The notes under the pieces were generated by a model. The model worked only from the letters and a program-made list of their open reading frames with translations, made no database searches and had not been told where the DNA came from. DNA of 15,385 bases from a virus, in the IMG/VR virus record IMGVR_UViG_3300035152_000011. The stretch is one strand, 5' to 3'. Below, piece by piece: positions 2,687 through 15,150 of the stretch. Within the stretch, counting starts at the first letter, position 1; the number at the start of each line of letters is the position of its first letter. A program made the position numbers and the translations under genes.

Positions 2687-3600
2687 TCCTCAGTCTCGTG
2701 AAGAATGCGGTTGACGGCGCGACGGACCGCGACCGACACAACCTCATCGGGCTCCTCGTAGGTAACGCACATCCCGGGCTCCTGATAGACGACCACGCCG
2801 TCGGTGTCGTAGATATCACCGTCGTAGAAGATGTCGCCCGGGAACGAACGCAGGAACCGCTCACCGCCCGGGATTTGGAGGTAGATGTGCAGCGCGAGCA
2901 TCTCCTCCGCGGCCGGGATGTCCCAGTCGTGGGTGCAGATCGACCGCGAGTCGTCCACGTCGTAGAGCACCGAACGCCGCAGTGCCAACTCGTCGTTCGC
3001 GTGCCGGCTAGTGATGAGATACCGGTGGCCCGTCGTCTGGCCCAGACTGAGGAAGCGGTTGTAGCACCGGAAGTCTTCGAGCTGGCCCGCGTCGAGGAAC
3101 GCGGTCAGGACACGTCGGGCCTGAATCTCAGCACTATCGAAGTCCGGGAACGGGCATCCACGCGTCGGCGCGGCCACGCTGGTCGCGGCCTTCGGCTTCT
3201 TCGCCGGGATGATCTTGTCCGGCGTCACAGCTTCCCGATATGGGCCGCCGTTGGCCTCATCCTTGGTCCACGCGTCCTCGAAGTCCGCAGTGCGGATCTC
3301 CTCGATGCTGCCGTCAGCGAACTTGACTGCGGAAACGACCTTACGCTCCGGTTTCAGGAAGCGTGCAATGACGCCGGCAACCTTGTCGATGGGCGCTCCC
3401 ACTTTCGTCGTGCCCGTCCAGTCCAGGTTCTCCTTCGCAGCAAGCCAGCCCTTCTTCGTGGCCGTCTTGCGCAGCCGATCCAACGCCGCCGTTTCCTGGG
3501 CGCTCAGATTCTCCGCGGTCACCTTGCAGCTCTCCGGGCCGGTCGGCACTACCTTGATGTCCCCGTAGAAGCTCGGGATGTACCAGATTGGGATCTGCAT
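2683..3600 (-). CDS. hypothetical protein, 305 aa
   Basis: ATG at 3600 preceded by AAAGGAGGAG with 4-nt spacer, a very strong SD. In-frame TAA just upstream. High GC3 throughout. No motif recognised. Confidence 0.75.
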   Translation of the reverse strand: MQIPIWYIPSFYGDIKVVPTGPESCKVTAENLSAQETAALDRLRKTATKKGWLAAKENLDWTGTTKVGAPIDKVAGVIARFLKPERKVVSAVKFADGSIEEIRTADFEDAWTKDEANGGPYREAVTPDKIIPAKKPKAATSVAAPTRGCPFPDFDSAEIQARRVLTAFLDAGQLEDFRCYNRFLSLGQTTGHRYLITSRHANDELALRRSVLYDVDDSRSICTHDWDIPAAEEMLALHIYLQIPGGERFLRSFPGDIFYDGDIYDTDGVVVYQEPGMCVTYEEPDEVVSVAVRRAVNRILHETEE

Positions 3601-6407: not shown

Positions 6408-6592
6408 CACCACGGCCTCCCCCGCTTGCGGATCACACCCGCATCGCGGCAAATCTGACAGATACGCTCCTTGCTAAGCCCAAACGCTTCGGCCAACTCG
6501 GCGGCTGACGCGCCGGCCACGTAACGCTCGACGATCTTCTCGTTGCGCTCGGGCCGGCTGCGCCAACCGACCTTCCTCCCCCGCTTTGCCAT
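6407..6592 (-). CDS. helix-turn-helix DNA-binding protein, 61 aa
   Basis: Track ORF 6407..6673 trimmed to ATG 6592 (MAKRGRKVGWRSRPERNEKIVERYVAGASAAELAEAFGLSKERICQICRDAGVIRKRGRPW) with GGAGAA 7 nt upstream. The segment SAAELAEAFGLSKERICQI is a classic HTH. Basic N- and C-terminal tails. First gene after a 77-nt gap. Confidence 0.7.
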   Translation of the reverse strand: MAKRGRKVGWRSRPERNEKIVERYVAGASAAELAEAFGLSKERICQICRDAGVIRKRGRPW

Positions 6593-6669
6593 CGTTGTTC
6601 TCCAAGGAAACCAGGGCATGTACCGCATGCTCAGGTTCTCACGCCAGTGTACGGGCACGACGAGTTGAA
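6593..6669 (-). promoter_or_regulatory. 77-nt intergenic gap between ARH stop and HTH gene start; candidate terminator/promoter boundary
   Basis: One of only three non-coding gaps. Contains the short inverted repeat GCATG-n5-CATGC (about 6617..6631) and the RBS for the HTH gene. I could not assign a clean -35/-10. Confidence 0.3.
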
Positions 6670-7602
6670 TCACCGCGGGCCCTCCATGAGTGCTACGTCG
6701 ATCTTGTGCAGCGTCTCGAATTCGCGCAGGCCGGTCTGGTAGCGCTCGGGGATACCTTCCAGCCCGAACCGGGCGCCGAGGATCGCGCCTGTGATCGCGC
6801 CGCGAGTATCGGTGTCCCCACCGCCCCGGATGGCCGCCACGACGCCTTGCTCGAAGTCAGCTGCCCAGGCTGCACAGAAGAGCGCCGTGGCCACGGTCTG
6901 GCTGACGTTCCCGAAGCGGCCGATCTTGCGGATGACCTCGGGCGGCGGCGTAAGACCTTGCATCAGGTAGTAGACCTGCTCGACCAGCTCGAAGACGCGC
7001 GTGCCCACGTAGGTCTCGCCGTACTGGGGCGCCAGGGCTTCCAGAACGGCCTCCAGCAGCCCGTAGCCGCGGACGCCTTCCAGGCTCCGCTTGACCGCCC
7101 AGGCCACTGCGAGTGAGCCTGCGGCCGCCTCGGGGCCCTGGTGCGTGATCGCTGCGTCCTCGACCGACCGTACGACGAGCAGGTCTGGGCTATCGCGGTA
7201 CCAAACGCCCAGAGGCGCGACCCGCATCGCGGTTCCATTGCCGACCGTGAGCGGGTCCTCGAACACGACCCCGGACTGGTTTGGCGGAGTACCAGCGGCC
7301 AGCGCAGCCATCGCTTTCCTGGTCGTCCCGCCCATACCGTGCGGGGTGTCCTGTGCCCAGGCCAGGTAGCGCTGAGCTGCGTCCTCGACCACGTAGCCCT
7401 CATGAGCGATCAGCGACTCAGCCAGAGCCATCGCCATCTCGGTGTCGTCGGTCCAGTGTCCGGCCGGCAGCTTGTGGTGCGTACCCGGCCGGTAGTTACC
7501 TGCCCACGTCGGTAGGTCTTTGTGAACCGCGTCGCCGCGTCGCTCGAAGGGCATTCCGAGCGCGTCCCCGACCGCGAGGCCGACCATGACTGCCGAGGTC
7601 AT
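6670..7602 (-). CDS. ADP-ribosylglycohydrolase (ARH/DraG family), 310 aa
   Basis: Track ORF 6670..7686 trimmed to ATG 7602 (MTSAVMVGLAVGDALGMPFE...) with AAAGGAG 6 nt upstream and an ATGA overlap with the upstream gene. N-terminal GxxxGDALGxPxE motif plus C-terminal GGDTDTRGAITGAILGARFG motif are the two hallmark metal-site segments of the ADP-ribosylglycohydrolase fold (PF03747). Confidence 0.9.
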   Translation of the reverse strand: MTSAVMVGLAVGDALGMPFERRGDAVHKDLPTWAGNYRPGTHHKLPAGHWTDDTEMAMALAESLIAHEGYVVEDAAQRYLAWAQDTPHGMGGTTRKAMAALAAGTPPNQSGVVFEDPLTVGNGTAMRVAPLGVWYRDSPDLLVVRSVEDAAITHQGPEAAAGSLAVAWAVKRSLEGVRGYGLLEAVLEALAPQYGETYVGTRVFELVEQVYYLMQGLTPPPEVIRKIGRFGNVSQTVATALFCAAWAADFEQGVVAAIRGGGDTDTRGAITGAILGARFGLEGIPERYQTGLREFETLHKIDVALMEGPR

Positions 7603-7790
7603 TCCGGCTCCTTTCCGCTGCCCCGACAGCGAACGCAGACGTGCATCATTCCATCGCCGTGGAGACGTTCTCCGCGGCCGTCGCACCAGATGCAGTCGCG
7701 CCGCTCCAAGGCCTTGACCCTGCGCTGGAGATCAGCGACCTGTGCTTCCAGGTCGGTGAAGCGCTTGGAATCGAGCAGTCCGTTAGCCAT
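7599..7790 (-). CDS. small zinc-ribbon protein, 63 aa
   Basis: ATG 7790 (second Met of the track ORF; GAGGGTGA upstream). CIWCDG...CVRCRGSG gives two CxxC pairs. N-terminal coiled-coil-like DLEAQVADLQRRVKALERR. Confidence 0.65.
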   Translation of the reverse strand: MANGLLDSKRFTDLEAQVADLQRRVKALERRDCIWCDGRGERLHGDGMMHVCVRCRGSGKEPE

Positions 7791-7995
7791 CACTCACCCT
7801 CGCGTCCTGCTTGGTAGCCTTCAGTCGGCTGCCGTCCAGGTTCCAACAGTAGCCGTGACGGTCGCGGTGTGGTCCCTCATGACCTGGTGACCGAACGCAC
7901 GGGAAGTCGGCCAGGACCGGGAAGTGTCCCGAGTACTTGCCGCATGATTCCGGCTCGGGCCGAAGGTTCGGATACCTTTCATAGAGCGGGTCCAT
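7783..7995 (-). CDS. small Cys/His-containing protein, 70 aa
   Basis: Track ORF 7783..8349 is mostly S/R/T-rich out-of-frame overlap with the HAD gene. Trimmed to ATG 7995 (MDPLYERYPNLRPEPESCGKYSGHFPVLADFPCVRSPGHEGPHRDRHGYCWNLDG...) with AAAGGA upstream. GC3 about 71%. Overlaps the HAD stop by 17 nt. Confidence 0.5.
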   Translation of the reverse strand: MDPLYERYPNLRPEPESCGKYSGHFPVLADFPCVRSPGHEGPHRDRHGYCWNLDGSRLKATKQDARVSDG

Positions 7996-8605
7996 CTGGT
8001 CCTTTCTGTGCCGACGCGCGAGCCTTGAACATGCGCTCACGAACCTGGCCGAGGTTGTGGCCGTCGTAGATGACGAGGTTCGGATGCGTGATGTCACTGT
8101 TCCACCGCTGCTTGATCGCGACGACCAGCCCGCGCGGCCGGACTTCGAGCCAGGGGAGAAAGTAGGGCGGCCAGTCATCGACCAACACCTTGCCGTAGAC
8201 CAACGACTTCTTCTGGCCGATGGTGACGTGTAGATCGGGGACGTGCTCCTGGCACCACTCGACCTTCTCCATCCAAGCGCGAGGATTCCACGGCCCCTTG
8301 GTAAGCGCGTGGTTCTCGAAGCCCAGACCGCGGGCAACCTCCAGGACATGGAACCCGTGTTCGAGCCGTTGCAAGTTACGCCAGAACCCGACCTGGTTCT
8401 TGATCAACGTGCGCCGCTCGGCAAGGTAGCGGGCCTTGCCGTACCACCAGGGCTCGGCGCCTAAAGGCGTTGTACGGGTCGCGATCTCAGCAGGCGATAC
8501 CAGCCGCTCCATCCCCTCGGCCATCGCAGTATCGTAATCAGCGAGCGTGCCGTCGAGATCGAATAGACAGACCGCATCATGCGGTGTCGGATCGGGCTTC
8601 GCCAT
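7979..8605 (-). CDS. HAD-superfamily phosphatase, NT5C-like 5'(3')-deoxyribonucleotidase family, 208 aa
   Basis: ATG 8605 with AAGGAGG at 7-nt spacing. Motif I FDLDGTLADY (DxDGT) and a motif-IV-like LVDDWP. Size and motif spacing resemble the small capless NT5C nucleotidases. Confidence 0.8.
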   Translation of the reverse strand: MAKPDPTPHDAVCLFDLDGTLADYDTAMAEGMERLVSPAEIATRTTPLGAEPWWYGKARYLAERRTLIKNQVGFWRNLQRLEHGFHVLEVARGLGFENHALTKGPWNPRAWMEKVEWCQEHVPDLHVTIGQKKSLVYGKVLVDDWPPYFLPWLEVRPRGLVVAIKQRWNSDITHPNLVIYDGHNLGQVRERMFKARASAQKGPDGPAL

Positions 8606-9033
8606 CAGTTGTCCTCCTTGTCCTCGGCTATCACGGTCAACGCTGCATCACTCAACGTCCGGCCGAACTGCGCATACAGCTCTCGGACATTGTCCTGGCA
8701 GTGCGCGAAGTCGCCGTGGGGATCGTCGCCGAAGTGCTCGGCCCACGTCTTGACCATCGACCAGTCGCCCTCGATCACTTCCATAACTGCGCTCTCAGCG
8801 AGCGCCGTCGCGAAGTTGGTCGCGCGCTTGATGGCGTCGAGCTGGTGCATCAGCTCAACAACGAAGTGGAGTCGCCGACGGCGCTCGTCGAGCGTCTGCT
8901 GCCCGAACGAGCGCCGAAAGCGCTCCGCGAAGCCGAGGACGAGAAACTCCTGGACCGTCAGCCCGCTGCCGAAGAAGTTGCGTGTTCCCTTAGCGAACCA
9001 CTCGTGGAATTTCTCTTCTCTGTCTTTGCTCAT
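8605..9033 (-). CDS. hypothetical protein, 142 aa
   Basis: ATG 9033 with GAGGAA 5 nt upstream. TGATG overlap with HAD start. Real-looking (MSKDREEKFHEWFAKGTRNFFGSG...). Confidence 0.7.
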   Translation of the reverse strand: MSKDREEKFHEWFAKGTRNFFGSGLTVQEFLVLGFAERFRRSFGQQTLDERRRRLHFVVELMHQLDAIKRATNFATALAESAVMEVIEGDWSMVKTWAEHFGDDPHGDFAHCQDNVRELYAQFGRTLSDAALTVIAEDKEDN

Positions 9034-9035
9034 CT

Positions 9036-9065
9036 GGTTCCTCTTGCTCCGGTGTCCCGGGAACC
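9036..9065 (-). promoter_or_regulatory. small hairpin (GGTTCC-n18-GGAACC, with internal TCCCGGGA palindrome) whose 3' arm overlaps the SD of the 8605..9033 gene
   Basis: Seen directly in the 38-nt spacer between the trx stop and the next start. Could modulate translation or act as a processing site. Weak. Confidence 0.25.
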
Positions 9066-9071
9066 GCCTGC

Positions 9072-9404
9072 TTACGCTTCGGGGAGAAACTTCTTCAGCT
9101 CCTCTTCGATCTCTTTCTTCGGCAACGCGCCGACGAGCTGTGCGACGACTTCCTCACCCTGGAAGATGAGCAGCGTCGGTACGGCCTGGATGCCGTAGCG
9201 GTCGGTGACCTTCGAGGCTTCGTCCACGTTGACCTTGCCGACGCTGAGCTTCCCGTCGTATTGCTTCGCGAGCTGGGCGACGATGGGCCCGATGACTTTG
9301 CAGGGCCCACACCACTCCGCCGTGAAGTCCACGAGCGTGACCTTCGATGCGGTCAAGAAGGCGTCGAAGGTGTCGTCGGTCAGGTCGGTTACTTGCTTGC
9401 TCAT
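9072..9404 (-). CDS. trxA: thioredoxin, 110 aa
   Basis: Track ORF trimmed to ATG 9404 (MSKQVTDLTDDTFDAFL...) with GAGGAA upstream. Active-site WCGPC in the DFTAEWCGPCK context. Full thioredoxin-fold length. First gene downstream of the AT-rich control region. Confidence 0.9.
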   Translation of the reverse strand: MSKQVTDLTDDTFDAFLTASKVTLVDFTAEWCGPCKVIGPIVAQLAKQYDGKLSVGKVNVDEASKVTDRYGIQAVPTLLIFQGEEVVAQLVGALPKKEIEEELKKFLPEA

Positions 9405-9446
9405 GATTTCCTCACGAAAAAAAGTTGGTGGCCGCGCGGTCACGCT

Positions 9447-9490
9447 CTAGCTGCGGGAATTCGGCCGTTCTGTTTTCGAGATGCAGCTAG
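9447..9490. repeat. inverted repeat CTAGCTGC (9447-9454) / GCAGCTAG (9483-9490), 28-nt spacer containing GAATTC and a T-run
   Basis: Seen directly; 8-bp perfect arms. Confidence 0.45.
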
Positions 9491-9501
9491 TGCGATGCGA
9501 T
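9491..9501. repeat. direct repeat copy 1, TGCGATGCGAT (tandem GCGAT)
   Basis: Identical 11-mer recurs at 9570..9580, 79 bp away. Both copies are flanked by CTAG-containing sequence. Confidence 0.5.
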
Positions 9502-9506
9502 TGGCA

Positions 9507-9518
9507 CTTGTATACAAG
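9507..9518. promoter_or_regulatory. perfect 12-bp palindrome CTTGTATACAAG; operator candidate
   Basis: Its reverse complement equals itself. Lies in the divergent control region. Also contains TATACA, a possible -10 for the leftward trx unit. Confidence 0.4.
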
Positions 9519-9569
9519 CACCAAGAACTTTTTTCAGCGACACAGATCGACTTCTCCTTCGAGAATCCC

Positions 9570-9580
9570 TGCGATGCGAT
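9570..9580. repeat. direct repeat copy 2, TGCGATGCGAT
   Basis: See copy 1. Confidence 0.5.
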
Positions 9581-9621
9581 CACTAGATCGGACGTGAGCG
9601 ACGAGTTGCGAAGATCACGTT

Positions 9622-9630
9622 TGGTAGAAT
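9622..9630 (+). promoter_or_regulatory. extended -10 element TGgTAGAAT for the rightward gene
   Basis: TGnTANNNT-type extended -10 sits 52 nt upstream of the 9683 ATG. Only a weak -35 (TTGCGA at 13-nt spacing). Extended -10 promoters are common in actinobacteria. Confidence 0.4.
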
Positions 9631-9682
9631 AGGACATGAAGTCGAACAGTGACGGCCCCGAGGGGCGCAACGGAGATCGAGG

Positions 9683-9982
9683 ATGGCAAAGCGCAAACTG
9701 AATGGTGTCCCCGTGAAGCGCGGGCAGACGTACCGCGTGCGGCGGTCGGGGAAGGCTCCGATCTACGTTCGCGTCGCCCGCGTCACGAACGGGCAGCAGC
9801 CCAAAGCGTTCCTGTATCGAGTGACCCGCAGCGGCCGGCGCGTCGGTCCGCGGCGCATTGTTGCCAGCACCAAGCTGGAGAACAACGAGCTGAAGAAGAC
9901 CTACGCGGTCAACACCATCGCGCACTGGCTCACCTGGCGCGACGACGCCTGGCGCATGCCTGAGAGCTGGGAGCTGGTATAG
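9683..9982 (+). CDS. highly basic 99-aa protein with internal duplication; function unknown (nucleic-acid binding suspected)
   Basis: ATG 9683 preceded by GGAGATCGAGG. GC3 about 86%. Sequence: MAKRKLNGVPVKRGQTYRVRRSGKAPIYVRVARVTNGQQPKAFLYRVTRSGRRVGPRRIVAS... Two YRVxRSGxx(V/I) repeat units. Only plus-strand gene in the window. Confidence 0.75.
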   Translation: MAKRKLNGVPVKRGQTYRVRRSGKAPIYVRVARVTNGQQPKAFLYRVTRSGRRVGPRRIVASTKLENNELKKTYAVNTIAHWLTWRDDAWRMPESWELV

Positions 9983-10643: not shown

Positions 10644-11371
10644 CGGTCTTCCAGTTCGGCTTTGGCTTGTGCGAGCAGTTTATCGACGTCGAGGCGGGCC
10701 TTCTCCTCGGCCCATGACTTCGCACGGTCCTTGATGTAATCGCGAGCAGCGCGGTCGTAGGCGTCTCGAATCTCCTGCCGGGCCTTGACCGCTATCCGCT
10801 CTGTGAGATCCGAGAAGTCAACCGCGGCTAGCGCTCTCTCTACCGCGGGTGCGGCAGCCTTCTCGACGCGGGCACGGATCGCGGTCATGACGGTAGTAGT
10901 CCGATTGTGACTGTCAAACCGAACGCGGCTGAAGCCGTCGTCTTGCACTCCGATCACGAGATCAATGACGGCCGAGATGCGATTCTTCACCCAGCTAGTT
11001 ACCGCCGCATCAATAGCGCCGTTGCTCAGCAGCTTCGAGGCGACCAGCACTGTTCGGTCGTTGAGCAGCTGCACGAGCTGGCCCGCGTTCACGGGCGGGA
11101 CCAGCTTGGGAAGCTCCGGCTCTAGCTTATGCCCGTGTGGATTGCGCTTCGGTACCAGCGGCTCGAAGTGTCCATAGGCAAGCGTCTCGATGGACTTCGG
11201 GTCCTTGGTCATGACCGCAGCCGCGACCGCATCGCGGAAGTCGGGGTCACCGTCGATGCGCGCGATCACGCGCAGCGCGACATCCGCGTGCTTGATACCC
11301 GCTTCGAGCACAGCGCGTTTCAGGTCTTCGTGTACGATGTCCATTTTCCAAGTCCCGTGGATGTGTGCCAT
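10640..11371 (-). CDS. hypothetical protein, 243 aa, coiled-coil-like C-terminus
   Basis: ATG 11371 directly after the upstream TAG (TAGATG). Alternative internal ATG at 11344. High GC3. Confidence 0.7.
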   Translation of the reverse strand: MAHIHGTWKMDIVHEDLKRAVLEAGIKHADVALRVIARIDGDPDFRDAVAAAVMTKDPKSIETLAYGHFEPLVPKRNPHGHKLEPELPKLVPPVNAGQLVQLLNDRTVLVASKLLSNGAIDAAVTSWVKNRISAVIDLVIGVQDDGFSRVRFDSHNRTTTVMTAIRARVEKAAAPAVERALAAVDFSDLTERIAVKARQEIRDAYDRAARDYIKDRAKSWAEEKARLDVDKLLAQAKAELEDR

Positions 11372-12047: not shown

Positions 12048-13025
12048 CTAGTACCGTGATTTGGGCCGTTGCGCGGCAATCGCAATCGCCATCGCGTAGG
12101 CCGCGTCCATGAGCTTGTCGAGCGGTTCGAGCAAGAAGTCGCTGCCAGTCGCTGCACGGTCGAGCCACAGCTTACGGAGCGCGACCTCCATATCCGGCTG
12201 GGTGACGTTTCCGCCCTTGGGTATCTGATAATCAGCGCGCCGCAGGAGCGGCCCCAGCTCGTCCAGCCTACCCCAGTTGCAGAGGTCTGTGGGGACGTGG
12301 CTCGCGTCGGTGAGCTGCATGCCGGTGAAGTCGCAGCGGTTGTGCCCCTCGTGAGAAATGCCTTGAAGGCTTGCCCCGGACAGATCGGCATTGGCCAAGG
12401 TCGTACCCCGCAGGACGGCCTTATCCAAAGACGCTCCGCGTAGCGACGCACCAGTGAAATTGGCGTCATCGAGCTTCGCGCCTCGAAGGTCAGCGCCGTC
12501 GAGGCACGCTCCAGAGAAGTCAGCGTCGTTCAACGCGGCCCCGCGCAGGTCGGCACCTTCGAGTGAAGTGGACGCGAACCGCGGCTTGCTGTGAAACACA
12601 GCCTTGCGGAGATCGGCTTTGTCGAACACAGCGCCGAGCGCATTGCAGTTACTGAACACCGCCTCACGCATCTTCGCAGCGCTGAAGTCGGTGTCCGGGA
12701 CGTTCGCGCCTGTCAGATCCACGCCCGGCATACTCGCACCCACGAAGATCGCGCCATCGGCGTTGGCCCCTTCCAGGACTGCCCTAGCGAAATCTGCCTT
12801 TGACAGATCGCACGCGGTCAGGTTGACGTGCTTCAAGGTGAGTCCTGCGAAGTCGAAGCCAACGTAGTCGCGCCGCTGGAAGTCAGCGCGTTCGAGCGGC
12901 ACGCGGGCGAGCAGCGCCCAGCTCTCGCGGGGCGTCATGTCCTCGAACGTGACTTTGCGGCCGTCGAACAGCATGATCTCTGGATCGCTAGACTCTTCTG
13001 CGGTGTGCTCGGGTTCCTTGGTCAT
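12048..13025 (-). CDS. pentapeptide-repeat protein, 325 aa
   Basis: ATG 13025 in an ATGA overlap with the upstream stop. Residues about 55-225 are tandem A(D/N)LxG-type pentapeptides (...ADLRGAALNDADFSGACLDGADLRGAKLDDANFTGASLRGASLDKAVLRGTTLANADLSGASLQG...), predicting a right-handed quadrilateral beta-helix. Non-repeat N- and C-terminal extensions. Confidence 0.85.
   Translation of the reverse strand: MTKEPEHTAEESSDPEIMLFDGRKVTFEDMTPRESWALLARVPLERADFQRRDYVGFDFAGLTLKHVNLTACDLSKADFARAVLEGANADGAIFVGASMPGVDLTGANVPDTDFSAAKMREAVFSNCNALGAVFDKADLRKAVFHSKPRFASTSLEGADLRGAALNDADFSGACLDGADLRGAKLDDANFTGASLRGASLDKAVLRGTTLANADLSGASLQGISHEGHNRCDFTGMQLTDASHVPTDLCNWGRLDELGPLLRRADYQIPKGGNVTQPDMEVALRKLWLDRAATGSDFLLEPLDKLMDAAYAMAIAIAAQRPKSRY
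12350..12860. repeat. tandem 15-nt periodic DNA repeats = coding repeats of the pentapeptide-repeat gene
   Basis: Periodicity is visible even in the antisense track ORFs (APRRSAPS recurring). Fully explained by the PRP coding sequence. Approximate bounds. Confidence 0.6.
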
Positions 13026-14414: not shown

Positions 14415-14538
14415 CGGATCTCCTCTGGAGCACCCACGCGTAGTGGGGAGAGCAGGCCTCACACCGCTTCTGCGGATAGACGCCAAAGTAGATGAAGGGC
14501 TCGCCGCAGACGATGCACGTTGCCTCAGAAGCGACCAT
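14314..14538 (-). CDS. small zinc-ribbon protein, 74 aa (CIVCG...CEAC)
   Basis: ATG 14538, one nt after the upstream TAG. GC3 about 80% over the first 41 codons. The last 33 codons overlap the start of the next gene, and there GC3 drops to about 42%. Confidence 0.6.
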   Translation of the reverse strand: MVASEATCIVCGEPFIYFGVYPQKRCEACSPHYAWVLQRRSDGKTRVVKTIRAPIPIGRGFRRYEERREVSGWS

Positions 14539-14539
14539 G

Positions 14540-14650
14540 CTAGAACCCCTTGGGCCATACGTTGAAAGCTGCGTGTTCGCTCTGGACAGCCTCCAGGAGC
14601 ACGGTCATTTCCTCGTCGCTGGCGCCGGTACGATCCCTGGCAGCGTACAC
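14540..14650 (-). CDS. hypothetical small protein; 5' boundary unresolved (coding signal extends to 14706 without a canonical start)
   Basis: Track ORF 14540..14845 overlaps the upstream CxxCxxCC gene for 139 nt. In the overlap, its frame has GC3 about 52%, against about 75% for the other gene, so it is not coding there. Downstream of 14707 its frame is clearly coding (GC3 about 78%). The only in-frame candidates are GTG 14650 (no SD) or ATG 14608 (SD abutting). Confidence 0.35.
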   Translation of the reverse strand: MYAARDRTGASDEEMTVLLEAVQSEHAAFNVWPKGF

Positions 14651-14706
14651 TGCGAGTGCCAGCGCGTCGCGCGAGAGCGTGTTGTGGACGAGCTGCCGCG
14701 CGAATT

Positions 14707-15150
14707 CTAGGATGACTTCGAGGCGGATCGGAGCACCGTCTCTCTGTCGTCGTTGAATAGCGGACTGCAACACCCCTGGCCGATTGCCAGTTCGTGCTCG
14801 AACCGAGAGCGCTGGTCGCCGCTCGATTGCGTGATGCGTTCGCACAAATACCTCCCCTTCTGATCTGGGTCCTCGGCCAGAAACCTACAGGGTACACCCT
14901 CGCCGAGGTGACAGGGCGCCTGTTTACAGCAGAAGCCGCAGCGGACGCACGGGCGTCGCGGCTGCCTCTTGTGGACGTAGCGGAGCTGGTCGCCATCATG
15001 AACGACGTAGCCCTTGCGGATGAAATGATCGAGCAGCTTGTCGTCGGCCGCTTTACAGCCTGCGAAGAGCTGCTCGCGTGTGAACGGTGCGCCGTCAAGC
15101 GCTTCGAGCCACCAGGCGATCTCCTCGTGGATGTGCAGCACGTACGGCAT
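14707..15150 (-). CDS. CxxCxxCC zinc/iron-chelating domain protein (YkgJ/UPF0153-like), 147 aa
   Basis: ATG 15150 (second Met of the track ORF) with GAGGGGA upstream and a TGATG overlap with the upstream stop. CVRCGFCC plus downstream Cys residues fits the CxxCGxCC signature of PF03692. Confidence 0.7.
   Translation of the reverse strand: MPYVLHIHEEIAWWLEALDGAPFTREQLFAGCKAADDKLLDHFIRKGYVVHDGDQLRYVHKRQPRRPCVRCGFCCKQAPCHLGEGVPCRFLAEDPDQKGRYLCERITQSSGDQRSRFEHELAIGQGCCSPLFNDDRETVLRSASKSS

Follow-up and report, generated by a model that had tools for sequence, protein, structure and literature searches.

Reversal of ADP-ribosylation is an established front in the conflict between phages and their hosts, as illustrated by DarTG, CmdTAC, AdfN and AdfM. 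Specifically, two phage enzymes have been proven to reverse the ADP-ribosylation of DNA by DarT: AdfN, a NADAR protein directed against DarTG1 (PMC11825919), and AdfM (Tk.4), a macrodomain protein directed against DarTG2 (bioRxiv 10.1101/2025.11.20.689424). About 5% of jumbo phages carry ARG domains, for which a preference for macromolecular adducts has been proposed (PMC9503650). In the literature searched, phage enzymes of the ADP-ribosylglycohydrolase (ARH) fold are known from annotation only, and no experimental work on one was found. Here we examine an ARH gene in a stretch of 15,385 nucleotides (hereafter the window; 61.6% GC, coding on the minus strand almost throughout) from an uncultivated phage whose genome measures about 143 kb (IMG/VR record IMGVR_UViG_3300035152_000011).

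The ARH gene is the last of six minus-strand open reading frames (ORFs) at positions 6593-9682, which a preliminary description, made without database searches, had taken for a self-contained cassette. With moderate confidence, we conclude that this block is a compact stretch of a variable accessory-gene region, a patchwork rather than a dedicated six-gene system, and that its ARH is probably an orphan eraser. In this regard the enzyme resembles AdfN and AdfM, which are likewise stand-alone ADP-ribose hydrolases of lytic-type phages that lie in accessory regions without an adjoining transferase and are sporadic in relatives. It differs from them in having the ARH/DraG fold (PF03747) instead of a NADAR or Macro fold. 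The genes of the block and the two genes that flank it are the following.

9072..9404, minus strand: trx, a thioredoxin of 110 aa with a WCGPC active site
8605..9033, minus strand: p142, a four-helix-bundle protein of 142 aa from an unannotated phage family (96 clusters)
7979..8605, minus strand: HAD, an NT5C-type 5′(3′)-deoxyribonucleotidase of the HAD superfamily, 208 aa
7783..7995, minus strand: s70, a Cys/His mini-protein of 70 aa inside an indel of about 190 nt
7599..7790, minus strand: s62, a protein of 63 aa that has a coiled coil at its N-terminus and carries CxxCxGxG twice (the pattern of DnaJ-type zinc fingers)
6670..7602, minus strand: ARH, an ADP-ribosylglycohydrolase of the ARH/DraG superfamily, 310 aa
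6407..6592, minus strand: HTH61, a small Sigma70_r4-like helix-turn-helix protein of 61 aa (PF04545, 4e-6)
9683..9982, plus strand: plus99, a lone opposite-strand basic protein of 99 aa that marks the upstream edge of the block

All six ORFs of the block are present as the preliminary description had claimed, and we judge all of them to be real from gene calls, homologs and domains. Five of the six were called independently by the JGI gene caller, which omitted s70. The exact ARH protein is also on record on JGI and Logan contigs, and the exact HAD protein on a contig whose length reaches 143,385 bp. The assignments as thioredoxin, HAD 5′-nucleotidase and ADP-ribosylglycohydrolase hold in profile searches. 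By megablast, the window as a whole matched none of 50,697 phage records, and PADLOC matched none of the eight proteins tested.

Gene order in related phages shows whether the block is kept together. Searches with the HAD protein and with backbone proteins yielded relatives that include L104 (Logan SRR33469041), L105 (JGI 3300009506), L016 and L017 (IMG/VR contigs of about 147-150 kb) and, from the same JGI sample, a sister contig. In L104, the closest relative, plus99 and an intergenic region of 276 nt are followed by trx (82% identical), p142 (76%), HAD (73%) and s62 (76%), and then by an unrelated ORF; s70 is absent. In the sister contig, a 99-aa gene on the opposite strand and a gap of 273 nt precede trx; p142 is lacking, and HAD comes immediately after trx. 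The flanking backbone is retained in both L016 and L017 (64-90% identity), but there trx, which begins 62 nt after g10640, is separated from HAD by nine other ORFs (3.6 kb), HAD leads to g6198 through two other ORFs, and ARH, p142, s62, HTH61 and plus99 are all missing. In L105, HAD (69%) is followed by ten other genes (4.5 kb), then by s62 and ARH (65% each), two further genes, the HTH gene (79%) and g6198 (84%). The preliminary description had itself chosen conservation in relatives as the test of its cassette, and this test refutes conservation of the order trx-p142-HAD-s70-s62-ARH as a unit: it is broken up in the sister contig, in L016 and L017 and in L105, and s70 is lacking from L104. 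Scans of viral contigs with p142 alone and with g10640 returned nothing.

Because trx and HAD persist without ARH in L016 and L017, they are inherited independently of it. Indeed, trx occupies the same backbone position in L104 and in L016 and L017 (67% identity in the latter two), and, judged from these gene orders, trx and HAD are backbone genes kept in relatives whether ARH is present or absent. HTH61 is part of the conserved backbone beyond the variable stretch; its L105 homolog stands two genes after ARH and directly before the g6198 homolog. By the same comparative evidence, genes turn over at a hot spot between trx/HAD and the HTH gene, and the pieces of the block (trx and HAD; s62 and ARH; p142; s70) appear to have separate evolutionary histories.

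One of these pieces is formed by s62 and ARH. The s62 gene was called by JGI, 4 nt (ATGA) are shared by its stop and the ARH start, and the same 4-nt overlap is found in L105. No CxxCxGxG partner resembling s62 stands upstream of any of the 81 other ARH genes for which 400 nt or more of upstream sequence is available, and the pairing is therefore specific to the lineage of the window. The two genes seem to form a translationally coupled, sporadic unit that comes and goes among relatives. The CxxCxGxG pattern of s62 is a mere resemblance to DnaJ zinc fingers. In L104, the ORF that follows s62 (10850-11076) is not an ARH but has a Cys-rich N-terminus (FGQLTV..YLCDCSCG..SCGC), and the contig ends there. 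This N-terminus is reminiscent of homing-endonuclease-associated zinc ribbons, and the ORF could represent a mobile element inserted where s62 and ARH meet.

The s70 gene, despite its omission by JGI, belongs by homology to a real small-protein family. An exhaustive HMMER search found the homologs P0217 (61% identity, E=3e-19), P0218 and P0224 (48-61 aa, 56-61% identity, E=3e-19 and 2.5e-10), which have the motif CG..FPCV..GH..PH.D..G..W in common with s70, and the codon-position GC of s70 is 0.65/0.49/0.70. Its segment is missing from L104, where HAD abuts s62, and the window carries an insertion of about 190 nt. We picture s70 as a small gene of zinc-knuckle type within an indel specific to the window. 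The s70-type motif (C..FPCV..GH..PH.D..G..W), a zinc-knuckle-like unit that is unnamed in any HMM library, is also repeated 3-8 times in tandem in proteins as long as about 2,500 aa; the set of proteins carrying it comprises P0217, P0218, P0224, P0226 and P0221.

The ARH protein itself matches PF03747 over profile positions 2-287 of 287 (E=2e-73, 247.8 bits against a cut-off of 26.2) and phrog_6572 (4e-43). The motifs GDALGMPFE, HWTDDTE and GGGDTDT are all present, and align with the same motifs in the Thermus thermophilus protein 2cwc and in MJ1187. The catalytic role of GD..G...E, TDDT and D.D[TS], which form a binuclear metal site, is known from ARH3 and DraG. With the GDALG...E, TDDT and DTDT motifs kept, the earlier assignment as an ADP-ribose-removing enzyme is reasonable, and the protein is motif-complete and predicted to be catalytically intact.

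Among proteins of solved structure, the best relatives of the window ARH are 2cwc (3e-30) and MJ1187 (2e-26), followed by DraG, ARH3, Tri1 and ARH1. With these proteins it shares the full-length PF03747 domain and the three motifs. However, it falls far below the equivalog cut-offs for DraG (TIGR02662, 113 versus 337 bits) and Tri1 (NF041672, 85 versus 490 bits), matching in the N-terminal half only, and its best matches are proteins without an assigned substrate. Recent capture of the gene from a host was considered and rejected: cellular homologs are at most 42% identical, compared with 49-65% for homologs on phage-like contigs, which points to an old phage-associated ARH lineage.

Domain searches with Pfam and PHROGs detected no ADP-ribosyltransferase (ART) domain in any ORF of the window, with the proviso that divergent ARTs could evade such profile models, and no ART is annotated next to ARH in L105, L106 or L110. 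Thus, the adjacent transferase of a DraT/DraG-type or ART-ARG pair is lacking in the window. The same two libraries, applied to more than 20 flanking ORFs, revealed no ART, Nudix, Macro or NAD-salvage genes, and nearly all of these ORFs are ORFans. A formal likeness exists to the ARG-centric conflict systems described in section 3.8 of Iyer, Burroughs, Aravind et al. 2022 (PMC9503650), in which an ARG without a transferase stands beside a phosphatase, small putative binding proteins and an HTH gene. Those systems, however, are cellular and include transcription factors with Nudix or WYL sensors, rhodanese-type phosphatases and TY/vWA chaperones, none of which was found here. The only regulator-like gene at our locus encodes the 61-aa Sigma70_r4-type HTH protein, which has no sensor domain, and there is no vWA, SseB or TY chaperone. 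Moreover, the link of HAD to ARH is not conserved in the phage lineage of the window.

In a wider frame, scans with the ARH returned 14 viral, 80 metagenomic and 80 cellular-genome loci, and 88 non-identical viral and metagenomic loci were compared. Only the window and L105 among these 88 have an HAD of the window type on the same locus as ARH, and trx is near ARH just once, 10 kb away. None of the 80 cellular loci has an HAD of the window type, s62, p142 or a convincing trx. Across the roughly 170 further ARH loci from viruses and cells, an HAD of the window type never adjoins ARH. The preliminary suggestion that the nucleotidase processes the nucleotide released by ARH finds no comparative support. 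Two apparently cellular loci (L037, 10831-11613; L043, 1726-2418) have ARH directly followed by another HAD-family hydrolase, with the N-terminus KAVFFDAGNT, and then by an SDR-type reductase; this adjacency is independent, and the HAD there is unrelated to the NT5C-type HAD of the window.

The trx and HAD genes have ready counterparts elsewhere. The thioredoxin matches PF00085 (1e-27), passes the equivalog cut-off of TIGR01068 (106.4 versus 96.8 bits) and has the WCGPC motif. HAD exceeds the gathering cut-off of PF06941 (NT5C; 29.3 versus 24.8 bits), matches phrog_420 (1e-13) and has its motifs I (FDLDGTL, for DxDxT) and IV (LVDDW, for DD) intact. Its homologs number 1498 at E<=1e-10, many of them on large phage contigs. 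By family annotation, NT5C enzymes act on deoxynucleoside monophosphates, not on ADP-ribose. In phages, nucleotide-metabolism accessory genes include thioredoxin/NrdC-type reductants and 5′-deoxyribonucleotidases (phrog_2643, phrog_420), which trx and HAD of the window resemble, but the window shows no ribonucleotide reductase or other nucleotide-metabolism gene. From family membership, trx and HAD would most likely provide redox (thiol) support and dephosphorylate deoxynucleoside monophosphates, with a role in the deoxynucleotide pool.

Which genes, then, do accompany ARH repeatedly? When ORFs within 5 kb of ARH are clustered across the 88 loci, the top recurrent neighbours are a Macro domain (nine loci), of the SCO6735/ALC1-like type (PDB 5e3b, E=1e-41), and the p142 family (eight loci). 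The p142 family comprises about 96 clusters of four-helix-bundle proteins of about 125-145 aa with an invariant R...L...GDW signature. It is found on viral and metagenomic contigs only, and a pattern scan of 185,579 species genomes found none. Seen from p142, ARH lies within 10 kb in four of ten evaluable loci (L106, L107, L108 and L110) and is absent from L109 and L111-L115. The linkage of p142 and ARH is found in two deeply diverged lineages, at distances of 0.5-5 kb, on either side and in variable order, frequently in company with a Macro domain and sometimes as ARH-Macro-p142.

One of these lineages is a clade of jumbo phages (L031, L036, L038, L039, L045, L107, L108 and L110) in which Macro, p142, PTH2 (peptidyl-tRNA hydrolase), Ro60/vWA and DprA/SLOG-like genes occur within 5 kb of ARH, together with a DSP-type phosphatase at some loci. 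This neighbourhood looks like an ADP-ribose/RNA-repair island. Where ARH, Macro, p142, PTH2 and Ro60/vWA are combined (L031, L045, L107, L108 and L110), the likeness to the window consists in an ARH with p142 0.5-5 kb away. The window, in contrast, is without Macro, PTH2 and Ro60, and belongs to a deeply diverged sub-lineage (ARH 37-42% and p142 24-28% identical). We tentatively raise the possibility, which we would not yet call probable, that p142 proteins are dedicated partners of phage ADP-ribose erasers, acting with ARH, Macro or both, whether as a subunit that targets them, as an inhibitor that binds toxins or as a ligand sponge, and that s62 is a second, translationally coupled accessory in the lineage of the window. 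Such an arrangement would amount to a new counter-defence module of large phages that is based on ARH and has several components.

The limits of the block are formed by two intergenic regions.

9405..9682, no strand: divergent intergenic region of 278 nt between plus99 (plus strand) and trx (minus strand), the presumed promoter/operator for both
6593..6669, no strand: downstream gap of 77 nt, or 5′ extension of the next gene; a weak boundary

The preliminary description regarded these as the only real intergenic regions of the window. On the JGI gene map with s70 added, 26 of the 35 junctions in the window overlap or abut, four measure 1-10 nt, and five are longer (278, 77, 77, 38 and 27 nt). 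The upstream region is indeed the largest gap, whereas the downstream one is equalled by a 77-nt gap at 14415-14491, and a further gap of 38 nt lies within the block. Similarly, the supposed AT-rich control region at 9405-9682 is a real region of regulatory type, conserved in relatives, but it is only mildly AT-rich (53% GC versus 62% for the window). What had gone unremarked is that plus99 faces away from trx, which makes the region divergent. Its equivalents are 273-278 nt long in three phages (278 nt in the window, 276 nt in L104 and 273 nt in the sister contig), and the L104 equivalent is about 72-87% identical, on a par with flanking coding DNA, with fully conserved blocks present. For its part, plus99 was called by JGI, has a codon-position GC of 0.62/0.53/0.85 and is 87% identical in L104; it matches nothing in Pfam, PHROG, NCBIfam or PADLOC. 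A perfect 12-bp palindrome, CTTGTATACAAG, is found at 9507-9518 as a single copy in the window and is identical in L104; either plus99 or the small HTH protein might use CTTGTATACAAG as an operator.

The junctions within the block consist of overlaps of 1, 17, 8 and 4 nt and of the 38-nt gap between trx and p142. The stop/start overlaps suggest translational coupling inside sub-blocks, and geometry and conservation indicate that the six genes are probably co-transcribed as one transcript that starts in the divergent control region. Of the two boundaries proposed for an independent transcription unit, the upstream one stands, as the divergent region is conserved in relatives and argues for a start site, but the downstream one is weak because of the equal gap at 14415-14491, the 38-nt gap inside the block and an alternative start of the next gene. 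Specifically, the ATG at 6592 chosen by JGI for HTH61 keeps the 77-nt gap, and the GTG at 6673 chosen by the Logan caller overlaps the ARH stop and erases it. The ATG has GGAG 7 nt upstream, the GTG is preceded by GGAGGG, and the 27-codon extension between them (6593-6673) has a GC content at third codon positions of about 0.70 and is missing from the L105 homolog.

Other features of these regions were also inspected. The window contained no match to an Rfam family and no tRNA, and folding z-scores are unremarkable (0.24 for 6593-6669 and -1.45 for 9405-9682). The 10-mer CAACTCGTCG was entertained as a common promoter or operator and dropped; it occurs exactly at 6658-6667 and 9599-9608 (minus strand, which is the coding strand, in both flanking intergenic regions) and at 2986-2995 (plus strand), has 7 of 10 bases in L104, and its count at no more than one mismatch is equalled in 3 of 200 shuffles. 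The ribosome-binding sites and first codons of HTH61 (6582-6603, minus strand) and plus99 (9672-9693, plus strand) are 86% alike over 22 nt, and both proteins start with MAKR, a likeness that may reflect chance or a common translation-initiation context.

Together, these observations are best accommodated by a patchwork in which the ARH, having no transferase partner in the window, would most probably strip ADP-ribose from a macromolecular target during infection as an orphan eraser akin to the AdfN and AdfM counter-defence enzymes. An orphan ADP-ribose eraser is plausible, and by analogy with AdfN and AdfM the enzyme may act in counter-defence. Either or both of s62 and p142 may help ARH as accessories or direct it to its target; p142 is a four-helix-bundle protein whose family recurs close to ARH and Macro genes of large phages. 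Several points weigh against this reading. The comparison of gene orders rests on about five relatives, several of them short contigs, and the contigs of both L104 and the sister end where the presence of ARH would have to be judged. A scan for sigma-70-like and terminator-like sites detected none at either boundary of the block, whose promoter and co-transcription we infer. The closest solved homologs of the ARH, 2cwc and MJ1187, are uncharacterised structural-genomics proteins. The association of p142 with ARH appears to be real but partial, reflecting in part shared synteny within one jumbo-phage clade, and six of the ten p142 loci are without ARH. Finally, HAD and ARH are co-regional in the window and, more loosely, in L105, and bacterial ARG systems are sometimes coupled to an HAD 5′-nucleotidase (Iyer et al., PMC9503650), such that the two may be linked functionally at this locus, but nothing in the lineage supports the link.

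This last point leads to the alternative favored in the preliminary description, in which the six genes together make up a single module for counter-defence or signal erasure, with ARH removing ADP-ribose from targets or immune signals, HAD processing the released nucleotide and trx in support. The genes are contiguous and coupled by overlaps behind a single control region, and both the shared region in L105 and the bacterial precedent for ARG-centric systems with HAD 5′-nucleotidases (PMC9503650) fit such a module. Nevertheless, relatives do not conserve the block, L016 and L017 keep trx and HAD while lacking ARH, and an HAD of the window type or a nearby trx accompanies ARH only in the window's own lineage among the 88 viral and metagenomic and 80 cellular loci. 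Moreover, deoxynucleoside monophosphates rather than ADP-ribose are the annotated substrates of NT5C enzymes, and viral ARGs have been argued to prefer macromolecular adducts over soluble signals (Iyer et al., PMC9503650). A single six-gene module is, in our estimate, very improbable.

Two further alternatives retain ARH activity but dispense with counter-defence or with a macromolecular target. The enzyme might be the reversing partner of a phage ART encoded elsewhere, in a DraT/DraG-like or toxin-antitoxin-like manner, and serve to tune or time phage-directed ADP-ribosylation of proteins of the host or the phage. ART-ARG pairs do exist in some phages, ARTs are frequent in large phages (PMC9503650), and the visible window represents only 15 kb of a genome of about 143 kb. 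The known pairs, however, are adjacent, and no partner adjoins ARH here, in L105 or in L106; with the profile searches of the window ORFs also detecting no ART-like domain, we regard this arrangement as unlikely. Alternatively, ARH, possibly together with HAD, might have a metabolic function, hydrolysing O-acetyl-ADP-ribose or ADPr-1′′-phosphate to recycle NAD-derived nucleotides. Such a function would agree with the hydrolysis of O-acetyl-ADP-ribose by ARH3-type enzymes (cited in PMC9503650) and with the Macro, Nudix, PTH2 and phosphatase genes in the ARH neighbourhoods of jumbo phages. Against it, the window contains no NAD-salvage genes, its ARH is nearer to the uncharacterised MJ1187/TTHA group than to ARH3, and the sporadic occurrence of ARH among close relatives suits an accessory or conflict gene better than one of core metabolism. 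A metabolic role therefore strikes us as quite improbable, and an orphan eraser in a patchwork of accessory genes remains the explanation that we prefer.

Elsewhere in the window, a second lone plus-strand ORF (14492-14710, 72 aa), which has a coding-like GC profile and stands beside the 77-nt gap at 14415-14491, mirrors plus99. Its call is uncertain, as the caller for L104 places a same-strand gene of 62 aa there. A pentapeptide-repeat protein of 325 aa is encoded at 12048-13025 (PF00805, 1.5e-39) and is 54-74% conserved in relatives. Proteins of this kind can mimic DNA (Qnr/MfpA-like), and this one is a possible anti-restriction or gyrase-protecting factor. The gene at 1-351, which runs past the left edge of the window, is of the RlaP family (PF10127) according to the JGI annotation of the source contig.

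For the study of phage genomes, the block at 6593-9682 holds a general lesson, namely that tight packing and a common upstream region do not make a functional cassette. A modest new lead is provided by the link of the p142 family with ARH and Macro genes and by the translationally coupled s62-ARH pair, which offer two candidate partner proteins for ARH. As the proven phage erasers are all NADAR or macrodomain proteins, the intact orphan ARH described here is a test case, from a non-model phage of about 143 kb, for the reversal of ADP-ribosylation by an enzyme of another fold.

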